This document shows positions 4,571-60,419 of a DNA stretch of 64,000 nt, piece by piece. The DNA comes from a bacterium (lineage in GTDB: Bacteria > Moduliflexota > Moduliflexia > Moduliflexales > JAUQPW01), in the NCBI GenBank assembly GCA_030550175.1, contig JAUQPW010000007.1, forward strand, positions 15,858-79,857, written 5' to 3'. The translations under genes and the position numbers were made by a program. The stretch's first letter is position 1. Every line of letters begins with the position of its first letter. Under the pieces are notes generated by a model, which saw only the letters and a program-made list of their open reading frames with translations, searched no databases and was not told the origin of the DNA.

Positions 4571-4629
4571 GTATGGAAGTATGGGAGTATGGGGGTCTCT
4601 ACTCCCACACCTCCACACCTCCAACCCCC
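4571..4629. repeat. GTATGGGAGTATGGG-family imperfect palindromic hairpin repeat (copy 1), in the ptsN|hprK spacer
   Basis: The left arm gtatggaagtatgggagtatggggg is complementary to the right arm tcccacacctccacacctcc when G-U pairs are allowed. Pairing is better in the minus-strand (operon) transcript. Confidence 0.6.
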
Positions 4630-4635
4630 GGCTCC

Positions 4636-5097
4636 TTAGTACTTTGCATCTTCTTTAGCAATAATATCATAGATCTCTTTTTTTGTTTTAGCTTGAATAA
4701 GAGCCGATCGAACTTCAGAATTTTTAAAGAGGCGGGAAATTCGCGCCAGAATTTTTAAATGAACCCCTGCAGAATTATCCGGAACTAACAATAAAAAGAA
4801 TAAATAGACGGGTTGTCCATCTAAGGCCTCAAAATCAACCCCTTTTAAACAACGCCCGAAAGCAGCCCGGGTTTCTTTAAGTCCTCTGGATTTTCCATGG
4901 GGAATAGCAATACCCTCTCCAATACCTGTACTTCCCAGCTTTTCCCTTTCTATCAAACTATTTAAAACACTCTGCTTATCTACATAGGGTACTCGCTGTA
5001 AAGCTGCTTCCGTTAATACCTCCAAAACCTCAAGCTTATTTGTAGCCTGAACATCCGGTAGAATAGCTTCTTCATCGAGAATATCCGTTAATTTCAT
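4636..5097 (-). CDS. ptsN: PTS IIA-Ntr nitrogen regulatory protein
   Basis: MKLTDILDEEAILPDV...GIAIPHGKS is the EIIA-Fru/Ntr fold with the active His. It occupies the canonical position between hpf and hprK. Confidence 0.8.
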   Translation of the reverse strand: MKLTDILDEEAILPDVQATNKLEVLEVLTEAALQRVPYVDKQSVLNSLIEREKLGSTGIGEGIAIPHGKSRGLKETRAAFGRCLKGVDFEALDGQPVYLFFLLLVPDNSAGVHLKILARISRLFKNSEVRSALIQAKTKKEIYDIIAKEDAKY

Positions 5098-5183
5098 CCT
5101 ACAACGTAAAACGCAAAGTATAAAACGTAAGGAACTATCTTTCCGGCTCAACGTTTTACATTTTACGTTTTACGTTTTATGCT

Positions 5184-5741
5184 TTACTGGAAAGTGGGTT
5201 CAATCAAGCCATAATTGCCATCATCTCTTCTATATAGGACATTAATTTGGTTTGTTTCATGGTTAAGAAAGACCAGAAAACCGTCCTGAGAAAGTCTCAT
5301 TTGGAGGGTTGCTTCTTCCAGAGACATGGGTTTTACGGCGAACTTTTCCGTTCGAATTACCCGAGGAGAAAAAGTAGGTTCTTCTTCCGATTCAAATTGA
5401 ACAGATTCAGAAATAGATTGAACCACCTCGCCTAGGTTTTTAGGAGACTTTTTTGACTTACGAGAGATGATTTTCCCTTTCCGTTTCTTGATTTGTTTTT
5501 CAATTTTATCTATGGCAATATCGATGGCTTGATACATATCTCCGGTTTCTTCCTGGCCATGGATTTTTGTTCTCCTGGCCTGTAAGGTTACCTCGGCCGT
5601 ATGTCGATATTTCTCTACGGAGAGTATGATGTGGGCTTCAACGATATTGAGATACTTCCCCAGTTTCTCAATCTTGGTTGTTACATACTCTCGAAGTGCA
5701 TTTGTAATTTCCAGGTGCCGGCCTGTAATGTTAATTTGCAT
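5184..5741 (-). CDS. hpf: ribosome hibernation promoting factor (long form)
   Basis: MQINITGRHLEITNALREYVTTKIEKLGKY is the sigma-54 modulation/RaiA/HPF family. It lies directly downstream of rpoN. Confidence 0.88.
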   Translation of the reverse strand: MQINITGRHLEITNALREYVTTKIEKLGKYLNIVEAHIILSVEKYRHTAEVTLQARRTKIHGQEETGDMYQAIDIAIDKIEKQIKKRKGKIISRKSKKSPKNLGEVVQSISESVQFESEEEPTFSPRVIRTEKFAVKPMSLEEATLQMRLSQDGFLVFLNHETNQINVLYRRDDGNYGLIEPTFQ

Positions 5742-5863
5742 AGATTTCCCTCCTCCGATGGGTCATGGATCCTTACGTAATGAGTGGCGAGTGTGAGGAG
5801 GAATAAGCGATGAATGGGGTGGAGAGGGGTGAAAAGAAAAACGCCTTACCCATCACTCATTAC

Positions 5864-7357
5864 TTAGGAGGTTTTACGTTTTCGTTTAACTGAAGAGGGA
5901 ATATTTAGATCTTCCCGGTACTTAGCGATGGTTCTTCGGGCTATTTCAATGCCATCTTTCTTTAAAAGATCCAGAATTTCCTTATCACTATAGGGATTAG
6001 CCGTATCTTCATTTAGAATAATGTTCTTTATTTTTTCTTTTACTGCAATAGAGGAAATATCATTACCGGAAGTACGACTTAGCCCACTATGGAAGAAGAA
6101 TTTAAGTTCAAAGATTCCCCTCGGCGTATGCATGTATTTATTAGTTGTCACCCGACTGACGGTGGATTCGTGCATAGAAATATCTTCGGCTACATCACGT
6201 AATACGAGAGGTTTTAAATGGCTTATTCCATGATCCAGGAACTCGCTTTGAAATTTAATGATACTCTTACCGACTTTATAAATGGTTCGTTTACGTTGTT
6301 CAATGCTTCGAATGAGCCAGATAGCAGATCGCAGCTTTTGTTCTACATATTGTCGGGTGGATTCGGAAACTTCGGCATTGTTGTGTCGAAGGATGCTTTT
6401 GTAAAGGTTATTGATTCGTAAGCGGGGGATGTCTTCTTCATTCAAAACCACTTCGTATTCTGATCCCATTTTATACACGTATAAATCGGGAATAATGTAT
6501 CGGGTTTTTTCATCAGAATATTCCAACCCAGGCTTGGGATTTAGCTTTTTAAGAATTTTATGAGCCAGTTTAATATCTTCGACCGTGGTATTAAATTTAG
6601 TGGCCAGTTCTTGATATTTCCCTCTTACCAGAGGTTCCAGCAAGTTTTCCTGGATAATTTTTTCGATAACGGTATTTTGCAGCTTGAGGTGCCGGATCTG
6701 AATCAGAAAACACTCCCTATAGTCCCTGGCTCCAACTCCGGCCGGATCAAAATTCTGAATTTTTCCTAAAACCCTTTCCACATCTTCTACCCGACACCGG
6801 GCCTCCTGGGCGATTTCTTCCAAAGGCGTTCGCAAATATCCGTCTTCTTCTATATTACCGATAATAAGCATACCGATTCGCAGTTCTTCTTCACTGGAAG
6901 TAGTCAGTTGAAGTTGCCATATCAGGTGGTCAATGAGGGAGGAGGATTTGGTCAGGATGTTTTCATAAGAAGGTCCTTCGCTATCGGGATCCCACTCCGT
7001 AAATTCTCCTAACCCGCTAGGATTATCTTCAAAATAATCTTCCCAATTAACCAAATCCGATGATTTTTTTTCCTCGGGTTCTGTTTCCATGGGCTCCTCC
7101 CAGGTGGGAGGGGGATTCTCAATCTGAATAGGCGACTCACCGTCTAGTTCTCGTTCGATTTCCTCGATACCTATCTTTTCTTGATCCGGTTCATCCTCTA
7201 AAGAAACTTCCAATAAAGGATTCTCGATAACTTCCTGCTCAATCATCTCCTTCAGTTCTAATGCGGACATCTGCAGCAGTTTAATAGCCTGCTGTAACAT
7301 GGGCGTCATGACAAGACGCTGAGTCATTTTGAGATTGAGTCTAGTATCCATTATCAT
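5864..7357 (-). CDS. rpoN: RNA polymerase sigma-54 factor
   Basis: N-terminal Gln/Leu-rich region I (MTQRLVMTPMLQQAIKLLQMSALEL), an acidic region II, a core-binding domain, and the C-terminal RpoN box ARRTIAKYRE. Confidence 0.95.
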   Translation of the reverse strand: MIMDTRLNLKMTQRLVMTPMLQQAIKLLQMSALELKEMIEQEVIENPLLEVSLEDEPDQEKIGIEEIERELDGESPIQIENPPPTWEEPMETEPEEKKSSDLVNWEDYFEDNPSGLGEFTEWDPDSEGPSYENILTKSSSLIDHLIWQLQLTTSSEEELRIGMLIIGNIEEDGYLRTPLEEIAQEARCRVEDVERVLGKIQNFDPAGVGARDYRECFLIQIRHLKLQNTVIEKIIQENLLEPLVRGKYQELATKFNTTVEDIKLAHKILKKLNPKPGLEYSDEKTRYIIPDLYVYKMGSEYEVVLNEEDIPRLRINNLYKSILRHNNAEVSESTRQYVEQKLRSAIWLIRSIEQRKRTIYKVGKSIIKFQSEFLDHGISHLKPLVLRDVAEDISMHESTVSRVTTNKYMHTPRGIFELKFFFHSGLSRTSGNDISSIAVKEKIKNIILNEDTANPYSDKEILDLLKKDGIEIARRTIAKYREDLNIPSSVKRKRKTS

Positions 7358-7441: not shown

Positions 7442-8164
7442 CTACAATACAAAATCCTCTCCCAAATAAAGCTCCTTAGCCTTTTTATTAAAAGCCAGTT
7501 CTAAAGGAGTCCCTGAAAAACGTATTTCCCCATCAGTTAGAATATAAGCCCGGTCCGTAGTCTTCAAAGTCTCACGAACATTATGATCTGTAATTAAAAC
7601 CCCAATTCCTCGATAAGCCAGTTGGGCGATGATATCTTGAATATCTGCTACCGCCTTGGGATCAATGCCGGCAAAAGGTTCATCTAACAGAATAAAAGAG
7701 GGAGAAGTAACCAACGCTCTGGTAATCTCAACCCGCCGACGCTCTCCGCCGGAGAGCGTATACGCTTTGTTATATCGGACCCTTGCAATATCGAGTTCGT
7801 TTAACAAAGCGTCCAGCCGTTCTTTACGCTCGGTAGCTGTAAGATTGAGGGTTTCCAAAATGGCTAAAATATTTTCTTCAACGGTTAATTTCCGAAATAC
7901 AGAAGCTTCCTGGGGTAAATAACCTAATCCCTTGCGTGCCCGCATATACATGGGATACTCGGTAATATCTTCCTCCCCTAAGTACACCCGTCCCTCTTCA
8001 GGTCGTATGAGCCCAATGAGCATATAAAAGGTAGTCGTTTTACCCGCCCCATTAGGTCCCAACAATCCAACGACTTCCCCTTGCCGAACGCTCAAACTAA
8101 CCCTATTTACCACCTTCCGGCCTTTGTAACTTTTCTGAAGATTCTCCGCACGCAACTCAATCAC
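7442..8164 (-). CDS. lptB: LPS export ABC transporter ATP-binding protein
   Basis: Walker [10 protein letters not shown], the ABC signature [11 protein letters not shown], and the conserved lptCAB-rpoN context. The ORF-track N-terminus ([14 protein letters not shown]) is encoded by the hairpin repeat. The real start is probably GTG or TTG near 8164. Confidence 0.88.
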
Positions 8165-8173
8165 AACCGAGTA

Positions 8174-8235
8174 GGGAAGTAGGAGAGTGTGGGAGTATGG
8201 GAGTATCATACCTCCACACTCTTACACTCTCTTAC
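8174..8235. repeat. GTATGGGAGTATGGG-family hairpin repeat (copy 2), in the lptA|lptB spacer
   Basis: gagagtgtgggagtatgggagtat / acctccacactcttacactctc form an imperfect palindrome. Confidence 0.6.
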
Positions 8236-8244
8236 TTTTCTGCT

Positions 8245-9447
8245 CTACGGCTTCTGCCCCCCAGGATAAAGGGTTGCCTTAATGGGGGACTCTACCTCAG
8301 TTTTTTCGCTTTTTTTTTCCTCTGATTTGGATTTGTTATCAGCTCCCGTATTTTGATCTCCCGGGAGAACCGTTTTAACACGACTCTTTTTAGCAGCCGT
8401 CGTGGTGGTAGCCGGACCACCCTTTGCAACATATTTATCCACGGCCAGAAAAGCCTCTATAATTGGGGCTTCTAAGGTATTTTTCTTGACCCTGTCTTCT
8501 GCCCGTGCTTTGTTTCCGTCTAAACCTTCAAGAACGGCTCGCTGGGTATCATCATAGTACGTACCGCGATCGCCGGTAAATAACATATTATCCTTCGCAA
8601 TACGAACATTATCAAATACTTCTATCTTTAAAAGCTCATCCTTTTCTGCCCGGGCATAGGCAATCATTTTCTCAGCCCTTAACTCGGTTGTCGCCTTCAC
8701 GGCAACTACATTTCCAATATAAGTGGCAGTACGGTTCACATTATCTAAGACAACCTTATCGGCCGTAATTACAATGGGAACATCTCCCTTAAAACTCTCC
8801 TTCAAGGAACTCGGCTTGGAACTTGAAGTTTTCTCAACCTTCTCGGATGGGGATCCCTTGTTTGGCCCGCCATCTGAAGTTTTCTCAGCCGATTTGGATT
8901 CGGATTCTTTCTTCGGATGAAGCGTCATGACCACACGTTCAGGTTTGTCATCCCCAAAAGCCTCTAAGACATCTCTATCCAGATAAGCAATCAAACGGTT
9001 ACCGGTTAACGTATTATCCACCTGCCAGGCCTTGGCATTTCCCTCCACCTCCAGCTTTTGCTCCGCATCATAATAAGTACAGGTGTCTCCCGTTGCTGTG
9101 ATAGTCTCTCGAACCAGTCGACAATCTCCAACGGCCACAGCCTTCTCTAGTTTTTCCTGGTCATTGGCATAAACGATGAGTTTATCGGTAAAAATATGGG
9201 TCTGATCCTGACTGACAACCACATTACCGGTATAAATGGCAATCTTCTTGTTATTATCGATTTCAAGTTCATCCGCCGTAATTTCAGTAGGCCCACGACT
9301 TTTTTTCATCTTGTCTTGCAATTTTTCATCTTTTTTCTCGGTCTTGGCGGGCTCTTGAGACTGGTCTTGAGATTGAACGGATGGCGATAGGGCTAAACAG
9401 ACTCCCAGTATCACGAATCCTATAAACCATCTCTCCAGCTTTTTCAT
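8245..9447 (-). CDS. lptA: LptA/OstA-like periplasmic LPS transport protein, unusually long (about 400 aa), with two OstA-like beta-jellyroll segments and a K/S/E-rich linker
   Basis: Signal peptide. Two segments each resemble LptA (IYTGNVVVSQDQTHIFTDKLIVY... and ATYIGNVVAVKATTELRAEKMIAY...). Its position between lptC and lptB supports the call. Confidence 0.6.
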   Translation of the reverse strand: MKKLERWFIGFVILGVCLALSPSVQSQDQSQEPAKTEKKDEKLQDKMKKSRGPTEITADELEIDNNKKIAIYTGNVVVSQDQTHIFTDKLIVYANDQEKLEKAVAVGDCRLVRETITATGDTCTYYDAEQKLEVEGNAKAWQVDNTLTGNRLIAYLDRDVLEAFGDDKPERVVMTLHPKKESESKSAEKTSDGGPNKGSPSEKVEKTSSSKPSSLKESFKGDVPIVITADKVVLDNVNRTATYIGNVVAVKATTELRAEKMIAYARAEKDELLKIEVFDNVRIAKDNMLFTGDRGTYYDDTQRAVLEGLDGNKARAEDRVKKNTLEAPIIEAFLAVDKYVAKGGPATTTTAAKKSRVKTVLPGDQNTGADNKSKSEEKKSEKTEVESPIKATLYPGGQKP

Positions 9448-10601: not shown

Positions 10602-10860
10602 AAATTCTAAACTGACAGTTCACAGGAGTAGGATCTAAAAAATTTTCTACTCCTTACTCCTTATGACCCAGTATTACCAATTCTTAGGCATATGTTATGC
10701 ATATGCAACTTTAGTTTTATTAGATTTTTTTTCTTTGTCAAGTTCTTATATTGGAAATTTTTTACTTATCCAAATGACAGGCTCTCCCACCTCTAGAAAC
10801 AATTTTATATAGGAACTTTATCCACTCTTACCTCCTTACAGGATAATTCCAAAAACCACT

Positions 10861-13825: not shown

Positions 13826-15235
13826 ATGACTTCAAAACCATCCGGAACTCTTCTTGCTTCCTTACAATCTGTAGATACCGAAAGAATTCGGGAGATCAGC
13901 CGAAAGCATCTCTGGCAACCCCTCCTCCAACATAGTCTTTTAGAAACCCAAAAACCCCTGGTTATCACAGAAGGAAAGGGCTGCTATTTGATAGATTCCG
14001 AGGGTCATGAATATTTAGATGCCTTCTCTGGACTCTGGGCCGTTAACATAGGGTATGGTCGGCAGGAGGTAGCCGATGCGGTTTATCGACAGATGAACCA
14101 GCTTAACTACTATCCACTCAGCCAGCTCAACGTTCCGGCAGCGCTTTTAGCCGAAAAGCTTGCCTCTATCCTTCCCGGAGATCTAGAACGGATTTTCTTC
14201 GTTAATAGCGGATCGGAAGCGGTGGAAACGGCTCTCAAAATCGCCCGGCAATACGGACGGCAGAAATATCCGGGAGAAAATCGCTATAAAATCATCTCAC
14301 GATATCGAAGTTATCATGGATTTACCATGGGTGCACTCTCTGCCACAGGACAGAAAATGCGGAAGAGAAAATTTGAACCTCTGGTTCCCGGTTTTCTCCA
14401 TGCCCATCCCCCTTATTGTTACCGTTGTCCCCTTAACCTCAAGTACCCGGCATGTAATATTCAATGCGCCGAGGAGATTGGAAATATCATCCAACATGAA
14501 GGGAAAGAATCTGTTGCCGCGGTTATTGCAGAACCGATTATCGGAGGAGGAGGCGTGATTGTTCCCCCACCTGAATACTTCCCCAAACTCAGGAAGATCT
14601 GTGATGATCATGGGGTATTGTTGATTGCCGATGAAGTAATTACCGGATTTGGGCGAACAGGTACCCTTTTTGCCTCAGAAGCCTTTAATATTAGACCGGA
14701 TATGATCACCCTGGCTAAGGGAATTAGCAGTGCTTATCTGCCTTTAGCAGCCTGTGCTACAACTCCCGAAGTGTTCGATGTATTTCTGGGAAGTCCAGGA
14801 GCCGAACTGGAGTTCGGTCAGGTCAGTACCTTTGGGGGCCATCCGGTAGCCTGTGCAGCCGGCCTGGCCAATTTAGATATCCTTCTTCGAGAGCGACTTT
14901 GGGAGAACTCCGCGGAGGTAGGCTCGTATCTTCTAAAAGGGTTGGAACAGCTCAAGGAATTCCCTATCGTAGGAGATGTACGTGGCAAGGGGCTCCTGGC
15001 CGGAATCGAGATTGTGAAGGATGAAAACAAAACCCCCGCAGACGATAAAATCATCGGAACGATCTTGAAGGAAGCCCGGGAGGAAGGGGTTATCGTAGGA
15101 CGTATGGCCATGGCGGTTACGGATTACAATAATGTCGTAGCCCTATCTCCTCCCTTATCCCTCAAAAAAGAGGAGGCCGATCGAATTGTGAATGCGTTAC
15201 AAAAATCCATCGGGAAAGTAGCAAGAAGTTTGTGA
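13826..15235 (+). CDS. class-III (omega) aminotransferase, PLP-dependent
   Basis: 469 aa. Motifs NSGSEAVETALKIARQY, LLIADEVITGFGRTG and the SxxK region match the aspartate aminotransferase-fold class III (BioA/GabT-like). An RBS (aaaaggagatct) precedes the start. Confidence 0.85.
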   Translation: MTSKPSGTLLASLQSVDTERIREISRKHLWQPLLQHSLLETQKPLVITEGKGCYLIDSEGHEYLDAFSGLWAVNIGYGRQEVADAVYRQMNQLNYYPLSQLNVPAALLAEKLASILPGDLERIFFVNSGSEAVETALKIARQYGRQKYPGENRYKIISRYRSYHGFTMGALSATGQKMRKRKFEPLVPGFLHAHPPYCYRCPLNLKYPACNIQCAEEIGNIIQHEGKESVAAVIAEPIIGGGGVIVPPPEYFPKLRKICDDHGVLLIADEVITGFGRTGTLFASEAFNIRPDMITLAKGISSAYLPLAACATTPEVFDVFLGSPGAELEFGQVSTFGGHPVACAAGLANLDILLRERLWENSAEVGSYLLKGLEQLKEFPIVGDVRGKGLLAGIEIVKDENKTPADDKIIGTILKEAREEGVIVGRMAMAVTDYNNVVALSPPLSLKKEEADRIVNALQKSIGKVARSL

Positions 15236-19355: not shown

Positions 19356-20405
19356 TCAGATACGAAACTCCTCCAATTCTTGTCCGATAATCGGGCGAAC
19401 CTCTACAATTCCCTCAGTAGAGTTTCTGCGGTATTGAACCCGAACGGTTTTGGCGGTTTTTCCATCGCTATGTCCGGCTGTAATTCCGGCGATGAGTTCT
19501 ATATCTTCCGGTAATACTTCCCCATCTGTAACGGTTAAGGGACCCTTATAGTCCAGAGTTTCAAAAAACCAGTGATCACCTTTTTTACAGAAGTTCGCAA
19601 GGAATTTATTTTCGGCTTCATCACGACCTACAATCACCTTCAGATCTTCGGATAATCGAAAATGCCGTCCTACCTTTGCCAAAATGAAGTCATCCATGAT
19701 GATCCGCTCTTTTCCTTTGTAGGTAATCAAATCCCGCAACTTCCTGGCATAATTCTGATCGGTCAGGAAGCAACATCCTCCCGACGGTTGCGGATATTCT
19801 TCAATACCAAACTGGGTAGCAAGTTGCATCTGAACCTGGCGGGATCGTCCCTGAATGTCATAAAGCTTGTTTCGATCTACCCATCCTTTGATTTCCGGGA
19901 TGGTGGGAGGTAGTAATTTAGCAGAAAGCGGTCGCAGCAGGAGACCCTCCAGGCCACTTTCCCTGGCAATTAGCAGAAGCTCACGCATGTGCTGGGATTT
20001 AGGACGCTGACCCAGAACTTCACCGGTAAAGACAAATTGAGCTCCGACCTCCTCCATATATTCTTTAGCCTTTTGAAACATATAGATTCGGCAATCTACA
20101 CAAGGGTTCATGGCCGATCCATATCCGTACTTAGGCTCGAACAAAACCGTTTTATAATAATCTTCTGAGATATCGATCAACTCTACTTTAATGCCCAGGT
20201 CTGCCCCGGCCCTTAAAGCTTCATTCTGAATAATCTTGTTTTTATCTTTATTTCGCCGAATCTTTCTCCGATGTTCTGTTACACAAAATCCGGTGTAAAA
20301 GTTAATCCCCTGAACCTCAATACCCATGTTGCTGATTATTTTGACGGCCAGGGTACTATCCAGCCCACCGGAGAGGAGTGCGATAGCTTTTATTTTTTCG
20401 GTCAT
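19356..20405 (-). CDS. PP-loop ATP pyrophosphatase family tRNA thiolation enzyme (MnmA/ThiI-like)
   Basis: N-terminal SGGLDS PP-loop and an NPCVDC motif resembling the MnmA catalytic-Cys region. It is flanked by TusA and a cysteine desulfurase. Confidence 0.6.
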   Translation of the reverse strand: MTEKIKAIALLSGGLDSTLAVKIISNMGIEVQGINFYTGFCVTEHRRKIRRNKDKNKIIQNEALRAGADLGIKVELIDISEDYYKTVLFEPKYGYGSAMNPCVDCRIYMFQKAKEYMEEVGAQFVFTGEVLGQRPKSQHMRELLLIARESGLEGLLLRPLSAKLLPPTIPEIKGWVDRNKLYDIQGRSRQVQMQLATQFGIEEYPQPSGGCCFLTDQNYARKLRDLITYKGKERIIMDDFILAKVGRHFRLSEDLKVIVGRDEAENKFLANFCKKGDHWFFETLDYKGPLTVTDGEVLPEDIELIAGITAGHSDGKTAKTVRVQYRRNSTEGIVEVRPIIGQELEEFRI

Positions 20406-20629
20406 AATTAATCCATGAACCCTTCATTCTGAATAATTAACCCGTTATATTAAATACCCTGAGCCCTACAGGCTGTGAAATCCGACCTTGTCTTTATAAA
20501 CAAGCGGTTACTTTGGAGTTAAAAGCTCAGGAGACAGGTTTTTAACCTGACCCCCTTTCCCCTCCCCCAACTTGGGAAGGGGAGTCCGCCGGAACTTTTC
20601 CGATAAGTTAACAGGTTCGGGTTAATTAT

Positions 20630-21796
20630 TCAGGATGAAGGATTCATTACAGAGATCCTCCTTAGCTTTTCCACCACAGGTGGAAAGGTCTCTATCACAA
20701 CGTCGATATCTTCTTCTCTGGTGTAAATTCCGGTTGAGAAAAGCAGTGAACCCTCCGCCAGTTCCAAAGGAATCCCCATGGCTTTCAGAACATGGGAGGG
20801 TTTCCTGGCCGTAAAGGTACAGGTGGAGCCTGGAGAAACCGCAATTCCCTTCCTGTCGAGAAGCAAAGTCAGGGCATCCCCCTTCACACATTCAACACAA
20901 AGACTCAGATAATGGGGAAGTCTTTGGGTAGGATGACCGTTTAAGTAAAGACCCGATACTTTCTTTAACAGGGCATCCCCCAGCCGATTCCGTAAAAACA
21001 AAATATGATCTATTCGTTGGGTCATTTCTTTTCTGGCCAGTTCTGCCGCTTTTCCAAGCCCTACAATACCTGAAATATTTTCGGTACCTGCCCGCCGTCC
21101 TTCTTCCTGCATACCACCATGGATCAACGGAGAAATTCTTACACCTTCTCGAATGTACAAAGCTCCGACCCCTTTAGGACCGTAGAATTTATGTCCTGAA
21201 AGACTCAGTAAATCAACCCCCAGGGTGTCTACATCTACCGGTAAAATACCCACTACCTGTGTGGCATCGGTATGAAAATAAATCCCCTTCTCTCGGGTAA
21301 TCCGACCGATTTCTGCTATGGGTTCCAAGGTTCCCACCTCATGGTTCCCGTACATGATGGATACCAAAATCGTTTTCTCTGTAATTGCTCCGGCAATTTC
21401 TTCGGGATCAACCATTCCATATTTGTTTACGGGTACGTAGGTCACCGTAAATCCCAGTTTTTCCAGAAATTTAAGGGCATAAAGTACCGATTGGTGTTCG
21501 ATCTGAGAAGTGACGATATGGGTTCCTTTCTTCTGATTCGCAAAGGCTACTCCTTTAATAGCAAAATTATTGGCCTCTGTACCACCCGAAGTAAAAACAA
21601 TCTCCTCTGACCTGGCTCCAATGAGGAGGGCAACCTGATGCCTGGCTTCTTCTAGAGCTTCCCGAGGTTTTTTACTTTCTTCATAAAGACTTCCAGGATT
21701 CCAGAAAAATTCACCAAGGTAAGGAAGCATCGCCCCCCTCACTTCAGGATGCATAGGCGTCGTTGTGGCATAATCTAAATAAATTTTCTTCATCAT
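20630..21796 (-). CDS. cysteine desulfurase (NifS/IscS class V aminotransferase)
   Basis: 388 aa. MMKKIYLDYATTTPMHPEV…, FTSGGTEANN, SLSGHKFYGPKGVGALY (PLP-Lys), and the C-terminal active-site Cys region. Confidence 0.9.
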   Translation of the reverse strand: MMKKIYLDYATTTPMHPEVRGAMLPYLGEFFWNPGSLYEESKKPREALEEARHQVALLIGARSEEIVFTSGGTEANNFAIKGVAFANQKKGTHIVTSQIEHQSVLYALKFLEKLGFTVTYVPVNKYGMVDPEEIAGAITEKTILVSIMYGNHEVGTLEPIAEIGRITREKGIYFHTDATQVVGILPVDVDTLGVDLLSLSGHKFYGPKGVGALYIREGVRISPLIHGGMQEEGRRAGTENISGIVGLGKAAELARKEMTQRIDHILFLRNRLGDALLKKVSGLYLNGHPTQRLPHYLSLCVECVKGDALTLLLDRKGIAVSPGSTCTFTARKPSHVLKAMGIPLELAEGSLLFSTGIYTREEDIDVVIETFPPVVEKLRRISVMNPSS

Positions 21797-25948: not shown

Positions 25949-26217
25949 AAACCCTCCTTTTTTCAGAATCCAGAAATTCAGAATCAGAAAAGAAAGGAAA
26001 GTAGAGATCCTTTGATTTCTGACTTCGAATTTCTAAGCCATTTCCGTATTGAAACAGTGCATAAGTTGTAAGAACAACTCCGGTAACTGCTGCTGAAGAG
26101 TACCTACTTCAAGTTACGTGATATTTCTATGTCGATTAGGCAGAAGTAGATATTATTCCACTTTTATAAGATTTGCCCAGGAAGGTCAACTTTATTTTTT
26201 AATAGGTAACTGTAACA

Positions 26218-42712: not shown

Positions 42713-42761
42713 AACAGACCCTCCTGCTCATTTGAGCTTTTAAGATGGCTATCGGTAAGTA

Positions 42762-42783
42762 GAAACTGCACAGAATATGCCAG
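42762..42783 (-). promoter_or_regulatory. candidate sigma-54 (-24/-12) promoter for the LarA…membrane-protein operon
   Basis: The minus strand reads ctGGcatattctgtGCagtttc. This is TGGCAT-N6-TGCA with the canonical 12-nt GG-to-GC spacing, about 45-70 nt upstream of the 42712 start codon. Confidence 0.3.
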
Positions 42784-42870
42784 CTTCATAGTTTTGGGAC
42801 ACGGAGTTCTGGGACACGGAGACCTTGGGACTTGGAGACGCGGGGAAATGTCTCCGTGTCTCCGCGTCCC
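42775..42870. repeat. complex GGGACACGGAGA-type direct/inverted repeat hairpin in the divergent promoter region
   Basis: gggacacggag appears twice, followed by cttgggacttggagacgcgggg aaatg tctccgtgtctccgcgtccccaagtcccag. A stem of 18-19 bp is possible, with alternative pairings. Confidence 0.5.
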
Positions 42871-43050
42871 CAAGTCCCAGTTATCTTGGTGATGAATAAG
42901 GGGAAATAAGGGCAAATCTTCATGTAAAAGCAAAATAAACTTCGCACTATTTATTTTCCCCTTGACTTGAAAGTTCAGGCTGAATAAGATCGTATTCGCT
43001 CCAAGTTATGGGATTTTCATACCTTAAACCTTCATTATTTTCCGGGGTTC

Positions 43051-52110: not shown

Positions 52111-52794
52111 ATGTCCATGATCCAGATGTATAACGTATATAAAATCTATGAAGGTGGCGTGCGAGCGCTGGAGGATATCACTTTAAGCATTGAAAAAGGT
52201 GAGTTTGTTTTTTTAACAGGCCCCAGTGGAGCCGGAAAAACCACGTTATTAAAAATCATATTTCGTGAAGAGCTCCCCACATCCGGTAATGTTCTTGTCA
52301 ATAATTTTAATATTGCCCGACTTCAAAGATCCAGTGTCCCTTATCTGAGAAGGAATATCGGGGTCGTTTTCCAGGATTTTAAGCTTTTAAAAAAGAAAAC
52401 GGTTTTTGAAAACGTTGCTTTCGCCCTTAAAGTCATAGGCGCTCCCCGGCGAGAGATTGACCAGCGGGTTTTACAAATACTTCGCCTTCTGGATTTAAAA
52501 GATAAAATGGATATGCTCCCCCATCTCCTCTCCGGAGGCGAACAGCAGCGGGTCGCCATCGCAAGAGCTCTGGTTAACCACCCCACCATTGTGTTGGCAG
52601 ACGAACCCACGGGAAATCTCGATCAGGAACTATCCCTGGAAATTATGAGTCTCTTCGAGGATATTAATGCCCGAGGTACAACGGTGGTGGTGGCCACCCA
52701 TAACCGCATGATCATCCGGGAAATGAGGAAAAAGGTCTTTTGCCTGGATAAAGGTCGTTTGGTCCGTATCGTGGACAATGGGAAAGATATTTAG
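52111..52794 (+). CDS. ftsE: cell division ABC transporter ATP-binding protein FtsE (no adjacent ftsX)
   Basis: Walker A GPSGAGKTT, signature LSGGEQQRVAIARAL, and about 225 aa length typical of FtsE. Confidence 0.8.
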   Translation: MSMIQMYNVYKIYEGGVRALEDITLSIEKGEFVFLTGPSGAGKTTLLKIIFREELPTSGNVLVNNFNIARLQRSSVPYLRRNIGVVFQDFKLLKKKTVFENVAFALKVIGAPRREIDQRVLQILRLLDLKDKMDMLPHLLSGGEQQRVAIARALVNHPTIVLADEPTGNLDQELSLEIMSLFEDINARGTTVVVATHNRMIIREMRKKVFCLDKGRLVRIVDNGKDI

Positions 52795-52925
52795 AAGTAT
52801 GGGGGTGTGGGAGTGGGGAAGTGTGGGGGTGGGAAAGTATGGGAGTGTGGGGGGTGGGAAAGTATGGGAGTATGGGAGTTAGAACTTCCCCACTCCCACA
52901 CTTCCCCACCCCCATACTCATACTT
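52795..52925. repeat. compound GTATGGGAGT-family hairpin repeat (copy 3, longest); fills the whole spacer between convergent ftsE and rsmI
   Basis: Left arm: gaagtatgggggtgtgggagtggggaagtgtgggggtgggaaagtatgggagtgtggggggtgggaaagtatgggagtatgggag. Right arm: cttccccactcccacacttccccacccccatactcatactt. Confidence 0.65.
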
Positions 52926-53605
52926 TACCGTTTTCCTTCCAGGACCAAGGTAATTTCTCCTTTGATCGGGGTGTTTTCAAATTTCTCGATAAGGGTACTG
53001 AGAGGGCCCCGTAAAACCTCTTCGAATTTTTTGGTAAGTTCCCGGGCTACGGCAGCCTTTCGATCTCCCAAAATTTCTTTCAGGTCCTTCAAGGTTTCTA
53101 GAAAACGATGAGGGGAAACATACATAATTAAAGTTCTCGGTTCATCTCGAAGAGATTCTATCTTTTTAAGCCGCTTACTTCTCTTATGGGGTAAAAATCC
53201 GATAAACACAAAACTATCAATGGGAAGACCAGAGACCACAGCAGCACTTACAAAAGCCGTAGGTCCTGGGATACAGACCACCGGGATATTATTTTCTATA
53301 GCCTGTTGAAGCAATCGATAAGCAGGATCCGATATTCCCGGGGTTCCGGCCTCAGAAACAAGGGCGATGTTGAGTCCGGATTTTAATTTATTTATTAACT
53401 CGGTCGCTTTAAATTCTTCATTGGCATCAAAATAACTGGTAACCGGAACATGAATATCATAGTAGGATAGAAGTTTTCGAGTCGTTCGCGTGTCCTCAGC
53501 AGCGATAAGATCAACTTCCCTGAGAACGCGTAGAGCACGTAAGGTGATATCTTCTAAGTTGCCAATGGGGGTACTGACTATATAAAGAGTCCCGGTTTCA
53601 GACAT
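52925..53605 (-). CDS. rsmI: 16S rRNA (cytidine1402-2'-O)-methyltransferase
   Basis: MSETGTLYIVSTPIGNLEDITLRALRVLREVDLIAAEDTRTTRKLL is the tetrapyrrole-methylase-fold RsmI signature. Confidence 0.88.
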   Translation of the reverse strand: MSETGTLYIVSTPIGNLEDITLRALRVLREVDLIAAEDTRTTRKLLSYYDIHVPVTSYFDANEEFKATELINKLKSGLNIALVSEAGTPGISDPAYRLLQQAIENNIPVVCIPGPTAFVSAAVVSGLPIDSFVFIGFLPHKRSKRLKKIESLRDEPRTLIMYVSPHRFLETLKDLKEILGDRKAAVARELTKKFEEVLRGPLSTLIEKFENTPIKGEITLVLEGKR

Positions 53606-56136: not shown

Positions 56137-57261
56137 ATGATCATTCCTAGAGGTAAAGTTATCCACGAAGCCCTGAGTACATCCTTTACGGATATTAACG
56201 AGCTTCTCAGAGATCTTGCAGAAAATAGTTTTACCGGCTGTTGCCAGGTTAGTTTTTGGGAATACGAGGGGATCTTATTTATGGACACGGGCAAGATTGT
56301 CAGTGCCTTAGAAGAAATTCAAAAAGATCCCCCGGTCTGTATAAGTGGTGAAAAAGCGGTACGAAGCATTCTGGCCAAATCCAGAGAAAAGGATGGAACG
56401 GTCACCGTTTTTCGGTTATCCAACGAACTGGTAGCCACCCTGGCCGCATCCTTAAAAAGTACCATTGTTTTAAAAGATTTGACCACGGAACTAACCAGTC
56501 TTGAAAAGCTCGTTCAAAAACTCCGAAAGGAAGAACACACCGGATATATTGAGGTCATTTTAAATAACCATGAAGGAAAAGGTTATATTTATTTCCAAGA
56601 CGGTCGGGTAATGGAGAGTGTTTATAAATCCGACGAGGGAGAGCTTATCTCGGGAGCTCAGGGGCTTAAAAAATTATTAGGGCTGAGTGCAGAAGTCGGA
56701 GCCGTTTTCAATGTGTATAAAGCAGATGTCTCTTCTGTCATTGAAGATACCACCAAGATAATGGAAGGGGAGGTTTTAGATTCGGTTCTGAGCGTATTTC
56801 AAAATATTTTATTTAATTTAGAAAAGGCAATCAACGACACCCTGGGCCAGGGGAAATTTTTAGAAATTTTTAAAAGAGTTTTAACGGCCCATGCCAATAA
56901 ATATCCTTTTTTAGATCCCTTTGCCGGTGAGTTTAACTATAAGGATGGAACCCTCACTTTTGAAGGGACTGTAACCGTAGATGAGTTTGTAGAAGGGGTG
57001 TGTGATACCATTCGGCGAACCGTGGAAGAAGCGGCTAAAAGAACTCCAAAGGAAAAACTTCTGTATAATATTCATTACCGCTTTCAAACTGTAAAAGGAG
57101 AATATAAACAGGATATCGAAAATCTTAAACTGCCGAGTAGATTACCCGAACTTCTGGCAGAGCCTGCTGAACCTCCCAAACCTGCTAAGGAAAACCCGGA
57201 AGAATCCAAGGAAAAGAAAGGGTTATTGAGTAGACTCCGGTTAAACATCAAATCTGAATAG
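56137..57261 (+). CDS. tandem DUF4388-domain protein
   Basis: Two roughly 120-aa repeats, each with TG…G.i.F..G.iv motifs (FTGCCQVSFWEYEGILFMDTGKIVSA and HTGYIEVILNNHEGKGYIYFQDGRVMESV). Confidence 0.5.
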   Translation: MIIPRGKVIHEALSTSFTDINELLRDLAENSFTGCCQVSFWEYEGILFMDTGKIVSALEEIQKDPPVCISGEKAVRSILAKSREKDGTVTVFRLSNELVATLAASLKSTIVLKDLTTELTSLEKLVQKLRKEEHTGYIEVILNNHEGKGYIYFQDGRVMESVYKSDEGELISGAQGLKKLLGLSAEVGAVFNVYKADVSSVIEDTTKIMEGEVLDSVLSVFQNILFNLEKAINDTLGQGKFLEIFKRVLTAHANKYPFLDPFAGEFNYKDGTLTFEGTVTVDEFVEGVCDTIRRTVEEAAKRTPKEKLLYNIHYRFQTVKGEYKQDIENLKLPSRLPELLAEPAEPPKPAKENPEESKEKKGLLSRLRLNIKSE

Positions 57262-57271
57262 GGTTTGAAAA

Positions 57272-58072
57272 ATGCTTGAGAAGATCAAGGATTTTAGTCT
57301 TTCTGCTAAACTGGCATCTCTGATTGTCATTGCGTTACTTCTGTATGGTTTTTGTATATTTTTCCTCTTGAGTTATCTGCTTGAGCAGAAATTTAATAGT
57401 ATCTATCCTACAGTTCGAGGGATGATGGTTGCCCAGATGGTAGCCCATAACCTTGCCAATACTTCATTAAACGGAAGCAGTATTACCAAAAGCCAGATCC
57501 AGCAGACTTTAAATTCTTATGATCCGTATAAAAGATACGGACTCTTCTATATCATTGTACAAAATGATAAAAATGAGGTGGTGGCTACCACTTTAGAAAC
57601 GGCTCCCTCTCCGGAGTTGATTAAAGCGAATGAACTTACCCAAGGCAAGGAAATACAAAACAAGCGGTTTAAGTCGGGGGATAATACCATCCAGGACGTT
57701 GCCGTACCTATTGGGGATTCCCAACAACCTAGAGGAGTGGTTCGAGCCGGAGTCCTGGAGCAGAGTGGAAGTGAAACAGGTTGGGAAATTATTAAAGAGG
57801 GAAAAGTCAAGGAGGTTTTAAATCCCCTTACATGGGGAATTTTTACCGGAGCTATTGTAATAGGATCCCTTTTGATGCTTTTCTTTTCCAAGATTATCGT
57901 GCAACGCGTTCAGTACCTGATCGATGTCGCGGACAAGATGAGTTTTGGAGATTTGGATGTGAAGATCGTTCCAGGGCCCAAGGATGAACTGGGAATATTG
58001 GGGGAAACTCTAGAAAGTATGCGGGCCAATCTCAAAGACGCCATCGAAAGACTTAAAAAGCGAAAACAGTAA
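57272..58072 (+). CDS. membrane protein with periplasmic region and C-terminal HAMP domain
   Basis: N-terminal TM, a second TM (WGIFTGAIVIGSLLMLFF), then a HAMP-like amphipathic region (…VQYLIDVADKMSFGDLDVKI…LGETLESMRANLKDAIERL). Confidence 0.5.
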   Translation: MLEKIKDFSLSAKLASLIVIALLLYGFCIFFLLSYLLEQKFNSIYPTVRGMMVAQMVAHNLANTSLNGSSITKSQIQQTLNSYDPYKRYGLFYIIVQNDKNEVVATTLETAPSPELIKANELTQGKEIQNKRFKSGDNTIQDVAVPIGDSQQPRGVVRAGVLEQSGSETGWEIIKEGKVKEVLNPLTWGIFTGAIVIGSLLMLFFSKIIVQRVQYLIDVADKMSFGDLDVKIVPGPKDELGILGETLESMRANLKDAIERLKKRKQ

Positions 58073-58111
58073 TTTCTTTTTAAACTCAGTCTTTAATGAG
58101 GAGTAGGGACC

Positions 58112-58615
58112 ATGCCGAAAAAGATAGATGGAAGTAAAATTACCATATTATCCTCTGAACAGTACGAAGCCGTTAAAAAGTGTCTAGGAGAACTTTACTC
58201 TAAGACCAAGGCAAATGCGGTTCTTTTTGCCGATATAGCCGGTCAGCTCATAGGTGAGCGGGGAGATACCTCCCATATTAATACAACGGTTCTGGCCGCT
58301 TTGGCTGCAGCCGACTTTTCGGCCACTGCGGAAATGGCCAAATTGGTCGGAGAAGAAGCCCGATTTAAGCTTCTCTTCCATGAAGGGGAAAAGAATAATG
58401 TCTACCTGACCAATGTCGGAGATGAGTATTTTTTGATTATCATTTTCCAATCTAATGTAGCTTTGGGGATGGTAAGGGTTTATACCAAAAAAGCAGTCGA
58501 AGCCCTGGATAAGATCATCAAAGAAGGAGGTAGTAGTAAAACTGTTACAGATATTATTGATGATGATTTTGGGGAACTCCTGGCAAATGAGTTAGATAGC
58601 TCATTTAAAGAGTAA
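58112..58615 (+). CDS. mglB: Roadblock/LC7-domain protein, MglB-like GAP
   Basis: 167 aa. Resembles M. xanthus MglB (…AVLFADIAGQLIGERGDTSHINTTVLAALAAADFSATAEMAKLVGEEARFKLLFHEGEKNNVYLTNVGDEYFLIIIF…). Lies immediately upstream of mglA, as in Myxococcus. Confidence 0.75.
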   Translation: MPKKIDGSKITILSSEQYEAVKKCLGELYSKTKANAVLFADIAGQLIGERGDTSHINTTVLAALAAADFSATAEMAKLVGEEARFKLLFHEGEKNNVYLTNVGDEYFLIIIFQSNVALGMVRVYTKKAVEALDKIIKEGGSSKTVTDIIDDDFGELLANELDSSFKE

Positions 58616-58637
58616 CTTTCTCCTATCTATCACGACT

Positions 58638-59222
58638 ATGTATATTAACTGGGCTTTACAGCAAATTAATCTGAAGATCGTTTATTATGGCCCCGGTGTC
58701 AGTGGAAAAACCACTAATTTGCTTTATATTCACTCTAAAGTGGCTCCAGAACTTAAAGGAGAGCTCGTTTCCCTTCAAACCCAAGAAGACCGTACCATCT
58801 TTTTTGACTTCCTCCAACTGGAGGTAGGTAAAATAAAAGGGAAAAAACCAAAATTCAATTTATATACCGTCCCAGGTCAGGTGTACTATGCTTATAGTCG
58901 AAAGGTCATCCTAAACGGAGTGGACGGGGTGGTATTTGTGGCCGATTCTCAATTCGATCGACTGGAAGCCAATCTTGAAACCCTGAACGATCTGGAGAAT
59001 AATTTGAAACAGGATGGACATAAGATGGATGAGTTTCCCTGGGTCATTCAATACAACAAGCGAGATCTCCCCAATGTGGCCCCTATTCCCTACCTGCAAC
59101 TCAAACTGAATAAGTATAACGTTCCCTATTTTGAAGCAGTGGCCAATAAAGGGATCGGAGTTTTTGAAACCCTTAAGGCCGTCATTAACCTGGTAGTGGC
59201 TAACGTCAGGAAAAAACTCTAA
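58638..59222 (+). CDS. mglA: Ras-like small GTPase MglA
   Basis: Near-collinear with M. xanthus MglA: P-loop YYGPGVSGKTTNL, the MglA-specific switch II TVPGQ (Thr in place of Asp), FVADSQ, and the NKRD G4 motif. Confidence 0.9.
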   Translation: MYINWALQQINLKIVYYGPGVSGKTTNLLYIHSKVAPELKGELVSLQTQEDRTIFFDFLQLEVGKIKGKKPKFNLYTVPGQVYYAYSRKVILNGVDGVVFVADSQFDRLEANLETLNDLENNLKQDGHKMDEFPWVIQYNKRDLPNVAPIPYLQLKLNKYNVPYFEAVANKGIGVFETLKAVINLVVANVRKKL

Positions 59223-59602
59223 TGGATCAAGATCTTCCTTCAACTCAAAATCTCATTGAAGAAAAGCTCCAAGAAATCAGTAAAGAAGGCCGTTTTGATC
59301 TGCTGGTTCTATTTAGTGAAGAAGGCCTTCCCATGATTCAAATTCCCTCATCTAAGTACGATAAAGACAATTTTATCGCTCTTTCTACCCTGCTTAACGA
59401 TCTGGCAAAAGTCGCAGAAACGTTAGATTCCTCCCTCAAAGTCGATGAAACTTCTATTACCACACACCATAAATCCAAAATCGTGGGTCGTATTTTTCAT
59501 GTCAACGGAATTCGATTTAATCTGGTTGCCGTTGTCCCACCCGAAGTGGCCTATCGTAAATTTATCAATAAAGCGGTTAAAGCCCTGTCGGCTATTTTAT
59601 AA
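59222..59602 (+). CDS. second Roadblock/LC7-domain protein (MglB/MglC-like paralog) translationally coupled to mglA
   Basis: 126 aa with Roadblock-like alternating hydrophobic pattern (…FDLLVLFSEEGLPMIQ…IVGRIFHVNGIRFNLVAVV…). Its start overlaps the mglA stop (TAATG). Confidence 0.55.
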   Translation: MDQDLPSTQNLIEEKLQEISKEGRFDLLVLFSEEGLPMIQIPSSKYDKDNFIALSTLLNDLAKVAETLDSSLKVDETSITTHHKSKIVGRIFHVNGIRFNLVAVVPPEVAYRKFINKAVKALSAIL

Positions 59603-59606
59603 CTCT

Positions 59607-59951
59607 CTAACCCGGGGGCCATCTCATACCTCTCCCCCCTAAAAGATGGAGATGAAGATGGTAAACTGACTGTCCCCCTTCGGGATTACAATTTATAACC
59701 AATCGGAACCCACGATGATGAACGTTTTTTAAGATCGCAATTTTTTTTGCCACCAGGATCATTCTTCCCATGAGAGTCTCTTCCTGATCTGGAACATCCA
59801 TTAAAGTAGCTATATGCTTTTTGGGAATGATGAGAACATGAACCGGAGCTTTAGGATCGATATCTTCAAAGGCAAAAACCTGATCATCTTCATACACAAC
59901 GGTACTCGGAAGCTCTTTCTTAACAATCTGGCAAAAAATACATCTCCTCAT
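59607..59951 (-). CDS. HIT-family nucleotide-binding protein (HinT-like)
   Basis: 114 aa. C-terminal histidine triad HLHLHLLGG. Confidence 0.8.
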
Positions 59952-60325
59952 GATCCGTAAACCTTCTTTTCATCGAACACCTTCTCCCGAACGATGGTAC
60001 TGGTTTCCAAATCCTTCTCCAATCGCCTGTAAAAACAACTACGATAACCTTCGTGGCACGCACCGACCAATTGTTCCACTTTAATTAACAGACAATCCCC
60101 ATCACAATCCAAAAAAACCTCCCGTACAAATTGATAATGACCGGAAGTTTCTCCTTTTGTCCATAATTTCTTCCGGGATCGGCTCCAAAAATAAACTTTA
60201 CCCGTCTCAAAGGTTTTTTCTAAAGCTGTACGGTTCATATAACCCATCATGAGGACCTCATTATTTTCTGCATCTTGAACAATGGCCGGAATTAAACCAT
60301 TTGAATCAAATCTGAGCGCTGTCAT
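59948..60325 (-). CDS. hisI: phosphoribosyl-AMP cyclohydrolase
   Basis: …IPAIVQD…[10 protein letters not shown]…WSRSR…LW.KGETSG…C.GD..L..V.Q… is the PRA-CH signature, with Cys/Asp metal ligands CDGDC. Start probably at MTALRFD (60325). Confidence 0.82.
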
Positions 60326-60380
60326 GGGGTACTCTTTTGGACTATAAAGCCCCAAAGGCACAAAGAAAACCAGATAAAAA

Positions 60381-60419
60381 AGTATGGGAGTGTGGGTGAA
60401 TTTCCCATACTCCCATACT
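60381..60419. repeat. GTATGGGAGT-family hairpin repeat (copy 4)
   Basis: agtatgggagtgtggg tgaattt cccatactcccatact forms a 16-bp stem with one G-U pair. It lies between the secreted-protein gene and hisI. Confidence 0.65.

Follow-up and report, generated by a model that had tools for sequence, protein, structure and literature searches.

Introduction

The short tandemly repeated repetitive (STRR) heptamers of cyanobacteria, reportedly described by Mazel et al. in 1990, are the classical example of the kind of repeat to which the sequences analysed here belong. STRR sequences are defined in heterocystous cyanobacteria, as heptamers; a genome holds several units of this 7-nt class, which stand in tandem in intergenic regions, often at gene ends, are hypervariable between genomes and can pair with inverted runs. 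The repeats that we studied lie in a stretch of 64,000 nucleotides of contig JAUQPW010000007.1 (assembly GCA_030550175.1, positions 15,858 to 79,857), which in its whole length is called the window below, and in which a first-pass annotation had pointed to four hairpins sharing a motif in short intergenic spacers. Our analysis places these hairpins in a known class, as STRR-like simple-sequence palindromes, yet with a new word (the degenerate octamer AGTRTGGG), in a new host lineage and in a fully palindromic form; they can be classed neither as a conserved regulatory RNA nor as a mobile element of the classical type. Like STRR-bearing genomes, the window has multiple array families in its spacers, namely (AAAACGT)n, (GAAGGAT)n, (TCCGTTG)n, (CTGACTC)n and (AGGAGTA)n, but the unit in question is 8 nt long and the host, which carries rpoN, hprK and lptCAB, is not a cyanobacterium.

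Other described repeats invite comparison as well. Repetitive extragenic palindromic (REP) sequences stabilize upstream mRNA against 3′ exonucleases. G-rich heptamers, GGGAATC in Xanthomonas and GGGGA(C/T)T in Nostoc, were studied by Rehm et al. (2015; PMC4692102), who found them to be intergenic with four units preferred. They lie at most 50 bp from a stop codon or overlap it, on the sense strand, and where they stand upstream of an open reading frame (ORF) they are on the non-coding strand; they are hypervariable between close relatives, their inverted copies permit stem-loops, and they form G-quadruplexes (G4) in vitro, with no function found (PMC4692102). Arrays of TAACTGA were reported by MacGregor (2015; PMC4679880) from Beggiatoaceae, Cyanobacteria and Bacteroidetes, with insertions and deletions of whole units between strains and with no mechanism assigned.

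Results

Four hairpins built from one tandem octamer

We searched the whole 64-kb window for GTATGGGAGTRTGGG with at most two mismatches and obtained 10 matches, where 0.19 were expected and none of 100 shuffles reached 10. Nine of the ten fall within the four sites of the first-pass annotation, all of which we found where it had placed them, while the tenth (38250, two mismatches) lies within an ORF, has no partner and is at chance level. The four sites are:

4567..4632: copy 1, in the ptsN/hprK spacer; inverted-repeat arms 4571-4589 and 4600-4618
8169..8245: copy 2, in the lptA/lptB spacer; 38-nt arms 8169-8206 and 8208-8245, with about 4.8 octamer units each
52795..52924: copy 3, in the convergent ftsE/rsmI spacer; a compound array with arms 52805-52838 and 52884-52917 and alternative registers
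60375..60425: copy 4, in the hisI 5′ leader; arms 60375-60396 and 60404-60425, two units each, with a 7-nt loop

Each site consists of a run of the degenerate octamer AGTRTGGG (equivalent by rotation to GGGAGTRT), a short loop and then a complementary run of CCCAYACT. The inverted-repeat search gave arms of 19-38 nt with 76-100% complementarity, Tandem Repeats Finder (TRF) detected period-8 arrays in all arms, and the arms contain about 2, 3, 4.8 and 10 units. Instead of a unique palindrome, the arms are made of plain tandem copies of a degenerate octamer. The copies vary in length (51-130 nt) and in their loops (CTCT, C, TAG and TGAATTT), and the G arm precedes the C arm at all four of them. 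Their stem-loops span 18-45 bp, and their RNA folds reach −30 to −71 kcal/mol, with z-scores between −5 and −9.4 for one strand or both; the plus strand of copy 1 stands apart (z −0.4). All four sites are intergenic, in a window where spacers sum to about 13% of the length. The repeat family is thus real, forms hairpins and is confined to spacers, as had been claimed. As the site sequences are identical across assemblies from four independent sequencing runs, an assembly artefact is ruled out.

The hairpins fit closely between the signals of the adjoining genes. On the plus strand the G arm of copy 1 occupies 4570-4596 (AGTATGGA AGTATGGG AGTATGGGGGT), the loop 4597-4600 and the C arm 4601-4629; on the mRNA (minus) strand this stem begins 7 nt past the ptsN stop codon (4636-4638) and ends 4 nt before the hprK GUG. 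The stem of copy 2, read on the minus-strand mRNA, runs from the final base of the lptA stop codon (8245-8247) to 4 nt before the lptB GUG. Copy 3 occupies the entire 130-nt gap between the stop codon of ftsE (TAG, 52792-52794) and that of rsmI (52925-52927). It is asymmetric, with a G-rich run of about 10 units (52795-52880), a loop at about 52881-52883 and a C-rich run of about 4-5 units (52884-52924), plus a secondary 25-nt period detected by TRF. Both ftsE and rsmI are followed directly by a G-rich run on their own sense strand, and copy 3, the only one of the four with at least four GGG tracts, has at least four tracts of three or more Gs on both sense strands. The window arrays begin 1, 0, 8 and 11 nt past the stop codons of ftsE, rsmI, lptA and ptsN, respectively.

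Copy 4 lies upstream of hisI (start ATG 60325) together with two further features:

60351..60445, minus strand: outer inverted repeat around copy 4; arms 60351-60367 and 60429-60445
60486..60514, minus strand: promoter-like site TTGACA-17-GATAAT with 11 of 12 matches, upstream of copy 4 and kept in relative L164

The promoter-like site is the best one in the region of copy 4 and, because it is conserved and lies upstream, copy 4 would be part of the transcribed hisI leader. Copy 4 and the outer repeat, whose arms were found at the hisI locus only, make up a single stem-loop of about 45 bp (−57.9 kcal/mol, z −10.5). A clear terminator-like U-tract follows the stem only at copy 4, where it is present on both strands: a terminator scan flags the plus strand, and the tail on the minus strand is UUUUUUAU. 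The tail of copy 1 is UUUCUUAUUUCC, that of copy 3 is weak, and that of copy 2 (CGGUUGUGAUUG) does not qualify as a U-tract.

Rapid turnover in relatives

By RpoN, the closest relative of the host is the metagenome-assembled genome (MAG) GCA_035559535.1 (98%), followed by relatives at 84, 81 and 78% and then by KSB3/Moduliflexota (Vecturithrix, Moduliflexus) at about 62%; both KSB3 genomes keep the operon order of the window. Judged by its closest named homologues and by synteny, the host is an uncultured relative of KSB3/Moduliflexota. The 98% relative (L156; DATMBG010000022.1) is labelled Candidatus Limnocylindrales (Chloroflexota), a label that seems doubtful; its operon and homologues point to KSB3/Moduliflexota.

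L156 is a sister species with 93-95% nucleotide identity, and its alignment with the window breaks precisely at both operon hairpins. The lptA/lptB spacer, which holds copy 2, measures 141 nt in L156 versus 81 nt in the window, and the ptsN/hprK hairpin (copy 1) is also longer there; in both, the two arms are altered together and pairing is maintained. In relatives at 78-84% protein identity the lptA/lptB spacer is only 22-25 nt long without a hairpin, or carries a small (GTAGGTA) hairpin, and the ptsN/hprK spacer contains a purine/pyrimidine hairpin with a different sequence, one built of (GATGAAT)n, or no hairpin. The stop codons of ftsE and rsmI overlap in L164, which leaves no spacer at the position of copy 3. 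In the L164 hisI leader the same promoter is followed by a one-unit hairpin (GAGTGTGGG-loop-CCCAC) and then U6, where the window has two units per arm and then U6.

No octamer motif was found in 66 kb of relatives L158, L161, L164 and L165 (70-84% identity), nor in 44 kb of two KSB3 genomes. The same spacers of relatives do repeatedly contain hairpins, of varying sequence, with z-scores of −3 to −6. Taken together, these comparisons show that hairpins change rapidly in place and are often present in the same spacers without conservation of sequence, and that the AGTRTGGG unit appears to have expanded recently within the window lineage. Conservation of the structure itself, on which the idea of a selected RNA fold would lean, was not found: in relatives at 70-84% protein identity the hairpins are missing or replaced by other sequence. 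In Candidatus Vecturithrix granuli (L167), the HPr/EI spacer (14353-14406) consists of (GTCAATT/GTCACTT)5, and operon-spacer heptamer arrays therefore reach named KSB3 genomes.

Hairpins of the same build from other units

The window contains at least six further spacer hairpins or arrays of the same build, made of other 7-8 nt units:

5100..5187, minus strand: hpf/ptsN spacer hairpin, (AAAACGT)n ... (ACGTTTT)n, starting 5 nt past the hpf stop codon
2967..3053, minus strand: EIIA(Man)/IIB spacer hairpin, (GAAGGAT)n ... (ATCCTTC)n
3469..3615, minus strand: hprK/EIIA spacer arms, (TCCGTTG)n ... (CAACGGA)n, a unit shared at the same spacer by L156 and L161
36702-36805: further array with units GTTACCC/CTGTTG
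28294-28374: further array with unit CTGACTC
10624-10663: further array with unit AGGAGTA

All of these spacer hairpins start a few bases past a stop codon on the mRNA strand, and several of the arrays recur in relatives with an identical unit, at times in another operon spacer. The octamer hairpins belong to a wider class of tandem-unit palindromes, among which AGTRTGGG is the most frequent unit in the window.

The octamer in other phyla

We scanned a collection of species-representative genomes for AGTRTGGGAGTRTGGGAGT, and all cross-phylum figures given here and below are among the matches listed. These comprise at least 119 loci in at least 10 phyla, with about 17 expected for random sequence, a baseline that is not that of other octamer simple sequence repeats (SSRs); what is established are the positional rules of the octamer, and an excess over other octamer SSRs is not claimed. 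The matches come from Bacteroidota (including Puia and other Chitinophagaceae-like MAGs, Saprospiraceae and Aquimarina), Chloroflexota, Armatimonadota, Planctomycetota, Verrucomicrobiota, Acidobacteriota, Gemmatimonadota, Cyanobacteria, Ignavibacteria, Rhodothermales/Salinibacter and others.

Arrays of two, three, four, five and six units number 11, 40, 53, 16 and 7, respectively, with the mode at four. Almost half of the arrays (48.8%) start between −8 and +12 nt from a sense-strand stop codon, counting the stops of sense-strand ORFs of at least 90 aa, versus 6% of random intergenic positions; the distance peaks at 3-4 nt past the stop, and the linkers read GAA, GGAA, AGAA or ACA. Over a length of 3-5 units upstream of the array, in-phase similarity to the unit equals the out-of-phase background. 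The array boundary is therefore sharp, and we could rule out that arrays are seeded from the upstream coding sequence or bleed into it. Where both arms lie within 300 nt, the G arm precedes the C arm in 23 of 24 cases, a 5′-to-3′ polarity that is identical for transcription off either strand. A partner arm within 150 nt was found for about one quarter of the arrays; the other three quarters or so have none, and the palindromic form by which the first-pass annotation had characterized the family does not extend to most copies elsewhere. In convergent-gene spacers of Bacteroidota there are perfect stems of 35-46 bp, which include non-repeat inner sequence. Beyond about 4 nt, the flanks of copies within one genome are unrelated.

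At L039, L069, L085, L111, L116 and other Bacteroidota loci, stop-rich heptamers (GCYTAAR)n are followed by (AGTATGGG)n ending in AGTG and then by arrays of CAACGGT, CCGCCAA and GCGTTAA; this fixed order past the genes suggests a structured 3′-end module. Viral contigs gave 33 octamer matches, mostly lone two-unit ones with about four true arrays; we judged this total not to exceed what chance would be expected to give. Searching the window by blastn against the octamer-bearing loci of the genome collection returned no match, and in the searchable literature the octamer strings retrieved only unrelated primers. Rfam 15 had no match in the whole window at gathering thresholds; at permissive E-values, over both regions, only generic long-hairpin models (microRNA precursors) appeared, far below threshold.

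Start codons downstream of the hairpins

In the left part of the window the operon HIT-lptC-lptA-lptB-rpoN-hpf-ptsN-hprK, followed by a mannose-type phosphotransferase system, lies entirely on the minus strand. NCBIfam models bear out the gene names LptA, LptB, HprK, FtsE, RsmI and HisI; PtsN is the best NCBIfam match of its product, yet below the model cut-off. The starts of the two genes behind the operon hairpins were revised as follows:

8162..8164, minus strand: true lptB start GTG, giving 240 aa, not 255; the 255-aa call from 8209 traverses the C arm
4552..4554, minus strand: true hprK start GTG, giving 312 aa, not 330; the 330-aa call from 4608 traverses the C arm

The N-terminal extensions of LptB (15 aa) and HprK (18 aa) had been suspected to be translated repeat, and they are indeed spurious: orthologue alignments exclude them, the trimmed proteins match NCBIfam from model position 2, and LptB of the sister species is called at 240 aa. 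The sister-species call of HprK carries a spurious extension of 34 aa. Trimmed HprK begins V-S-T-E-G-S-I-S-V-R-E-L-K-E-G, and its start region reads VSTEGSISVRELKEG. Because all six frames of an octamer array are free of stop codons and the array holds a Shine-Dalgarno-like GGAG and then an ATG, gene callers extend downstream genes through such arrays, which is a warning for annotation in general.

Between the stem and the start codon, neither the lptB nor the hprK GUG has a Shine-Dalgarno sequence. Relatives without the hairpin, including L158 and L161, have at the orthologous spacers an ATG after GGGAGG or GGGAGCAGGAAG, while hairpin-bearing lineages have a GUG without Shine-Dalgarno sequence, so that start signals vary with the presence of the hairpin.

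Fold asymmetry between strands

The imperfections of the stems had been read by the first-pass annotation as T/C changes compatible with G-U pairing and hence as a sign of selection on the RNA. Since the units differ at A/G positions (AGTRTGGG), mismatches in the stem are transitions. At copy 1 the mRNA strand is the more stable (−40 versus −22 kcal/mol), at copy 2 it is the antisense strand (−50 versus −38 kcal/mol for the mRNA strand), and at copy 4 the fold is symmetric between strands; the sister-species versions are nearly symmetric. Because the favoured strand varies between copies and strains, the asymmetry provides no evidence for RNA selection, and as it does not track the transcribed strand we rejected it as a sign of selection on the mRNA.

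Comparison with described repeats and terminators

The octamer resembles the G-rich SSRs of Rehm et al. in being a tandem unit of 6-9 nt with three or more Gs, intergenic and stop-adjacent on the sense strand, and the placement of those heptamers on the non-coding strand upstream of genes (PMC4692102) is equivalent to the G-arm-first polarity of the octamer. It differs from them in its 8-nt unit, its occurrence in at least 10 phyla, its KSB3-related host and the complete palindrome formed by every window copy; three of the four window copies are without the four G-tracts required for G4. Like TAACTGA, it is an exact short word that forms tandem arrays in spacers across distant phyla, accompanied by arrays of other heptamers; the two also have in common that they vary by whole-unit insertions and deletions and are missing from the same spacer in close relatives. 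TAACTGA arrays, however, mostly lie just upstream of starts as forward direct repeats, with one inverted set in that genome (PMC4679880), whereas the octamer is G-rich, stop-adjacent and, in the window, palindromic.

The likeness to REP sequences, to the bacterial interspersed mosaic elements (BIMEs) and to REPINs is one of position and gross form: all are extragenic, high in copy number and located at gene 3′ ends or between cistrons, and a REPIN, with its two inverted arms, forms a long hairpin. REPs are unique imperfect palindromes, 20-40 nt long, which have a GTAG/GTGG head that is conserved and are alike in sequence among copies, while the octamer arms are tandem and their loops unshared. 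We therefore rejected a REP, BIME or REPIN identity on the tandem arms and on the loops and lengths that differ between copies. Miniature inverted-repeat transposable elements (MITEs), such as Correia/NEMIS or Nezha, were rejected as well, as there is no internal sequence past the loop of 1-7 nt and no target-site duplication; the flanks of the window copies are inverted, not direct (AAAAAAGTATGGG...CCCATACTTTCTT). Kinship with REP/BIME/REPIN or MITE families thus failed on their defining features, which are a conserved palindrome, internal sequence and target duplication. A tblastn search with the REP-associated tyrosine transposase (RAYT) of Moduliflexus gave no match in the window or in about 1.3 Mb of loci, which are small parts of the genomes. 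In Candidatus Moduliflexus flocculans (L168, DF820459.1), the region 19730-21604 is a textbook REP-RAYT locus: a RAYT-like gene of 160 aa (Y1_Tnp) has on either side clusters of classical REP-like palindromes (TACGCCGTAGGCGT / TACCGCGTAGCGGT), whose sequence differs from the octamer.

Copy 4 has the build of an intrinsic terminator, with a GC-rich stem and a U-tract behind the conserved promoter-like site; copies 1 and 3 are weaker in this respect. The symmetry of A-tract, stem and T-tract is reminiscent of bidirectional terminators. Compared with intrinsic terminators, however, the stems are 2-5 times longer, copy 2 is without a U-tract, and copies 1 and 2 lie within an operon before essential genes.

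Discussion

A tentative model and its rivals

How the arrays arise can be sketched from the comparisons between relatives. Slippage by whole units in both arms would lengthen and shorten the octamer runs in place, and one arm would be copied to the other, probably by template switching; turnover would therefore be far faster than that of the flanking DNA. We infer that the repeats are transcribed in mRNAs, given their places within an operon, in a 5′ leader and in the gap that separates two stop codons. Transcribed copies would fold G arm first into stem-loops of 18-45 bp that mark cistron boundaries. In the lpt-rpoN-pts operon, a ribosome ending the upstream gene may melt the stem and free the downstream GUG, which would amount to translational coupling, and the long stems are likely to act as barriers to 3′ exonucleases and as substrates of RNase III. 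Copy 4, with its U-rich tail, is probably an expanded leader terminator; copies 1 and 3 have weaker tails, and copy 3 may serve as the terminator of its convergent genes. We hold this proposal, in which G-arm-first RNA stem-loops at cistron boundaries provide coupling, exonuclease barriers or RNase III sites and, at copies 3 and 4, terminators, to be the likeliest of the readings considered, though only tentatively, and give it somewhat less than an even chance. The putative role as attenuator or RNase processing site that had been suggested for the operon copies is plausible. Several observations weigh against the proposal. Copy 2 has no U-tract and its antisense fold is better by about 13 kcal/mol, and a stem of −37 to −44 kcal/mol before the essential lptB and before hprK would stop translation if coupling failed. 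The hairpins are missing in relatives with the same operon and are thus dispensable, and since about three quarters of the listed arrays have no partner within 150 nt, the hairpin does not define the octamer family. Fast turnover is equally well compatible with neutrality. Phase variation we consider unlikely, as the flanking genes are housekeeping genes, an argument made also for the heptamers (PMC4692102).

The neutral alternative is that slippage and intramolecular template switching build and reshape palindromes as a non-adaptive by-product, devoid of any function, wherever harm is small, namely in the gap between a stop codon and the next signal, with the loss of the Shine-Dalgarno sequence and the GUG starts as tolerated consequences. 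We regard it as somewhat less likely than the proposal above, although much of the evidence suits it: the extreme turnover between genomes that are about 94% identical, the absence from relatives with the same operon, the many units with one build in one genome, the lack of a consistent strand for G-U pairs, and published heptamer families that have no assigned function despite targeted study (PMC4692102; PMC4679880). Pure mutation pressure does not explain, however, the G-arm-first polarity of 23:1, the anchoring at stop codons (49% versus 6% in the control), a mode at four units in place of a monotonic decay, or the repeated occurrence of hairpins in the same spacers of relatives. Another alternative is that the sense-strand G run past the stop codon acts, in RNA or in the displaced strand of the DNA, as a G4, i-motif or R-loop that pauses or terminates the polymerase or blocks 3′ exonucleases, with the C arm as modulator and the four-unit array (AGUAUGGG)4 as the candidate G4. 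The unit is GGG plus 5 nt, the commonest array has four units and thereby four G-tracts (53 arrays, versus 40 of three units and 16 of five), the arrays adjoin the stop codon and are on the sense strand, copy 3 has the necessary tracts on both sense strands, and such properties are on record for the GGGAATC and GGGGAYT repeats, whose G4 formation in vitro was reported (PMC4692102). We nonetheless find it improbable: in the window, each arm of copies 1, 2 and 4 holds no more than 0-3 GGG tracts, the same genome builds an identical architecture from the G-poor units AAAACGT and GAAGGAT, and a complementary arm a few bases away should outcompete a G4. A G4 or R-loop fits the other phyla better than the window.

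To a non-autonomous mobile palindrome of REPIN or MITE type, spread by a transposase encoded elsewhere such as a RAYT, we likewise give little credence. In its favour, the octamer occupies four separate spacers in the window lineage only, the spacer filled by copy 3 has no counterpart in L164, where the stop codons overlap, and the perfect 35-46 bp stems of Bacteroidota include non-repeat inner sequence; the gross shape is that of REP doublets, and a KSB3 relative does have a classical RAYT flanked by REP clusters, of different sequence. Yet the copies, 51-130 nt in length, share neither loop nor internal sequence, their flanks show no target-site duplication, and within a genome the flanks are unrelated past about 4 nt. 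In the sister species orthologous copies are restructured internally and neither gained nor lost, a one-unit precursor of one copy stands at the orthologous site (the L164 hisI leader), and the search for a RAYT homologue found none in the window or in the loci examined, a small part of each genome. Least probable of all, in our view, is a platform on which a sequence-specific protein (an RNA-binding regulator, or a nucleoid or replication factor) reads the repeated octamer. The very same word is met in many phyla, at a position that is fixed with respect to genes, and protein binding has been proposed for TAACTGA (PMC4679880) and for Nostoc heptamer repeats (bioRxiv 10.1101/2022.06.06.494920). 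Against it stand the lack of a known candidate protein, the burial of most of the word in the stem within the window, and the many unrelated units of the same build in one genome. The phyla that carry the octamer are not known to share an obvious specialized RNA-binding protein.

Other features of the window

Two further repeats have sequences unrelated to the octamer family. Nested inverted repeats lie at 26213-26349, within a spacer of 800 nt (25949-26748); at 42790-42879, in a divergent spacer (42713-43050), there is a tandem repeat of 15 nt together with a 21-nt palindrome. Among the operon products, LptA (8245-9447), at 400 aa, is about twice as long as usual and has two OstA/LptD_N-type domains. 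RpoN (5864-7357) has 497 aa in the window lineage versus 742-777 aa in the KSB3 relatives, so that the KSB3 sigma-54 carries an insertion of about 270 aa. A cluster at 56137-59222 encodes PatA_N-like, HAMP and Roadblock/LC7 proteins and a small Ras/Arf-like GTPase; it is kept in L164 and L165 and looks like a polarity or motility module of the MglA/MglB type. The window contains no tRNA or tmRNA genes.

Implications

Repeats of 7-8 nt at gene ends have been known since the STRR work, without a mechanism of origin or function. To these our analysis adds a KSB3-related lineage in which such repeats are systematically paired into long stems that bridge stop and start codons in an essential operon, as well as quantitative rules that hold across phyla and that any mechanism would have to satisfy: anchoring at the stop codon, G arm first, and four units. 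A bolder reading, which we consider quite unlikely, takes the octamer not as one slippage product among many but as a cross-phylum, stop-anchored 3′-end or insulator signal read by universal machinery (RNA polymerase, the ribosome or nucleases, via a G4, an R-loop or the G-arm-first hairpin), or else as a new kind of palindromic mobile DNA that would target the bases right behind stop codons and pass between phyla. If true, such a signal or element would explain the occurrence of the same word in at least 10 phyla, the boundary at 0-5 nt from the stop codon, the polarity of 23:1 and the four-unit mode. For the host lineage, stems that couple or punctuate cistrons, if they do so, would be a cheap and fast-evolving means of tuning operon stoichiometry; the cross-phylum rules are the part most worth pursuing.

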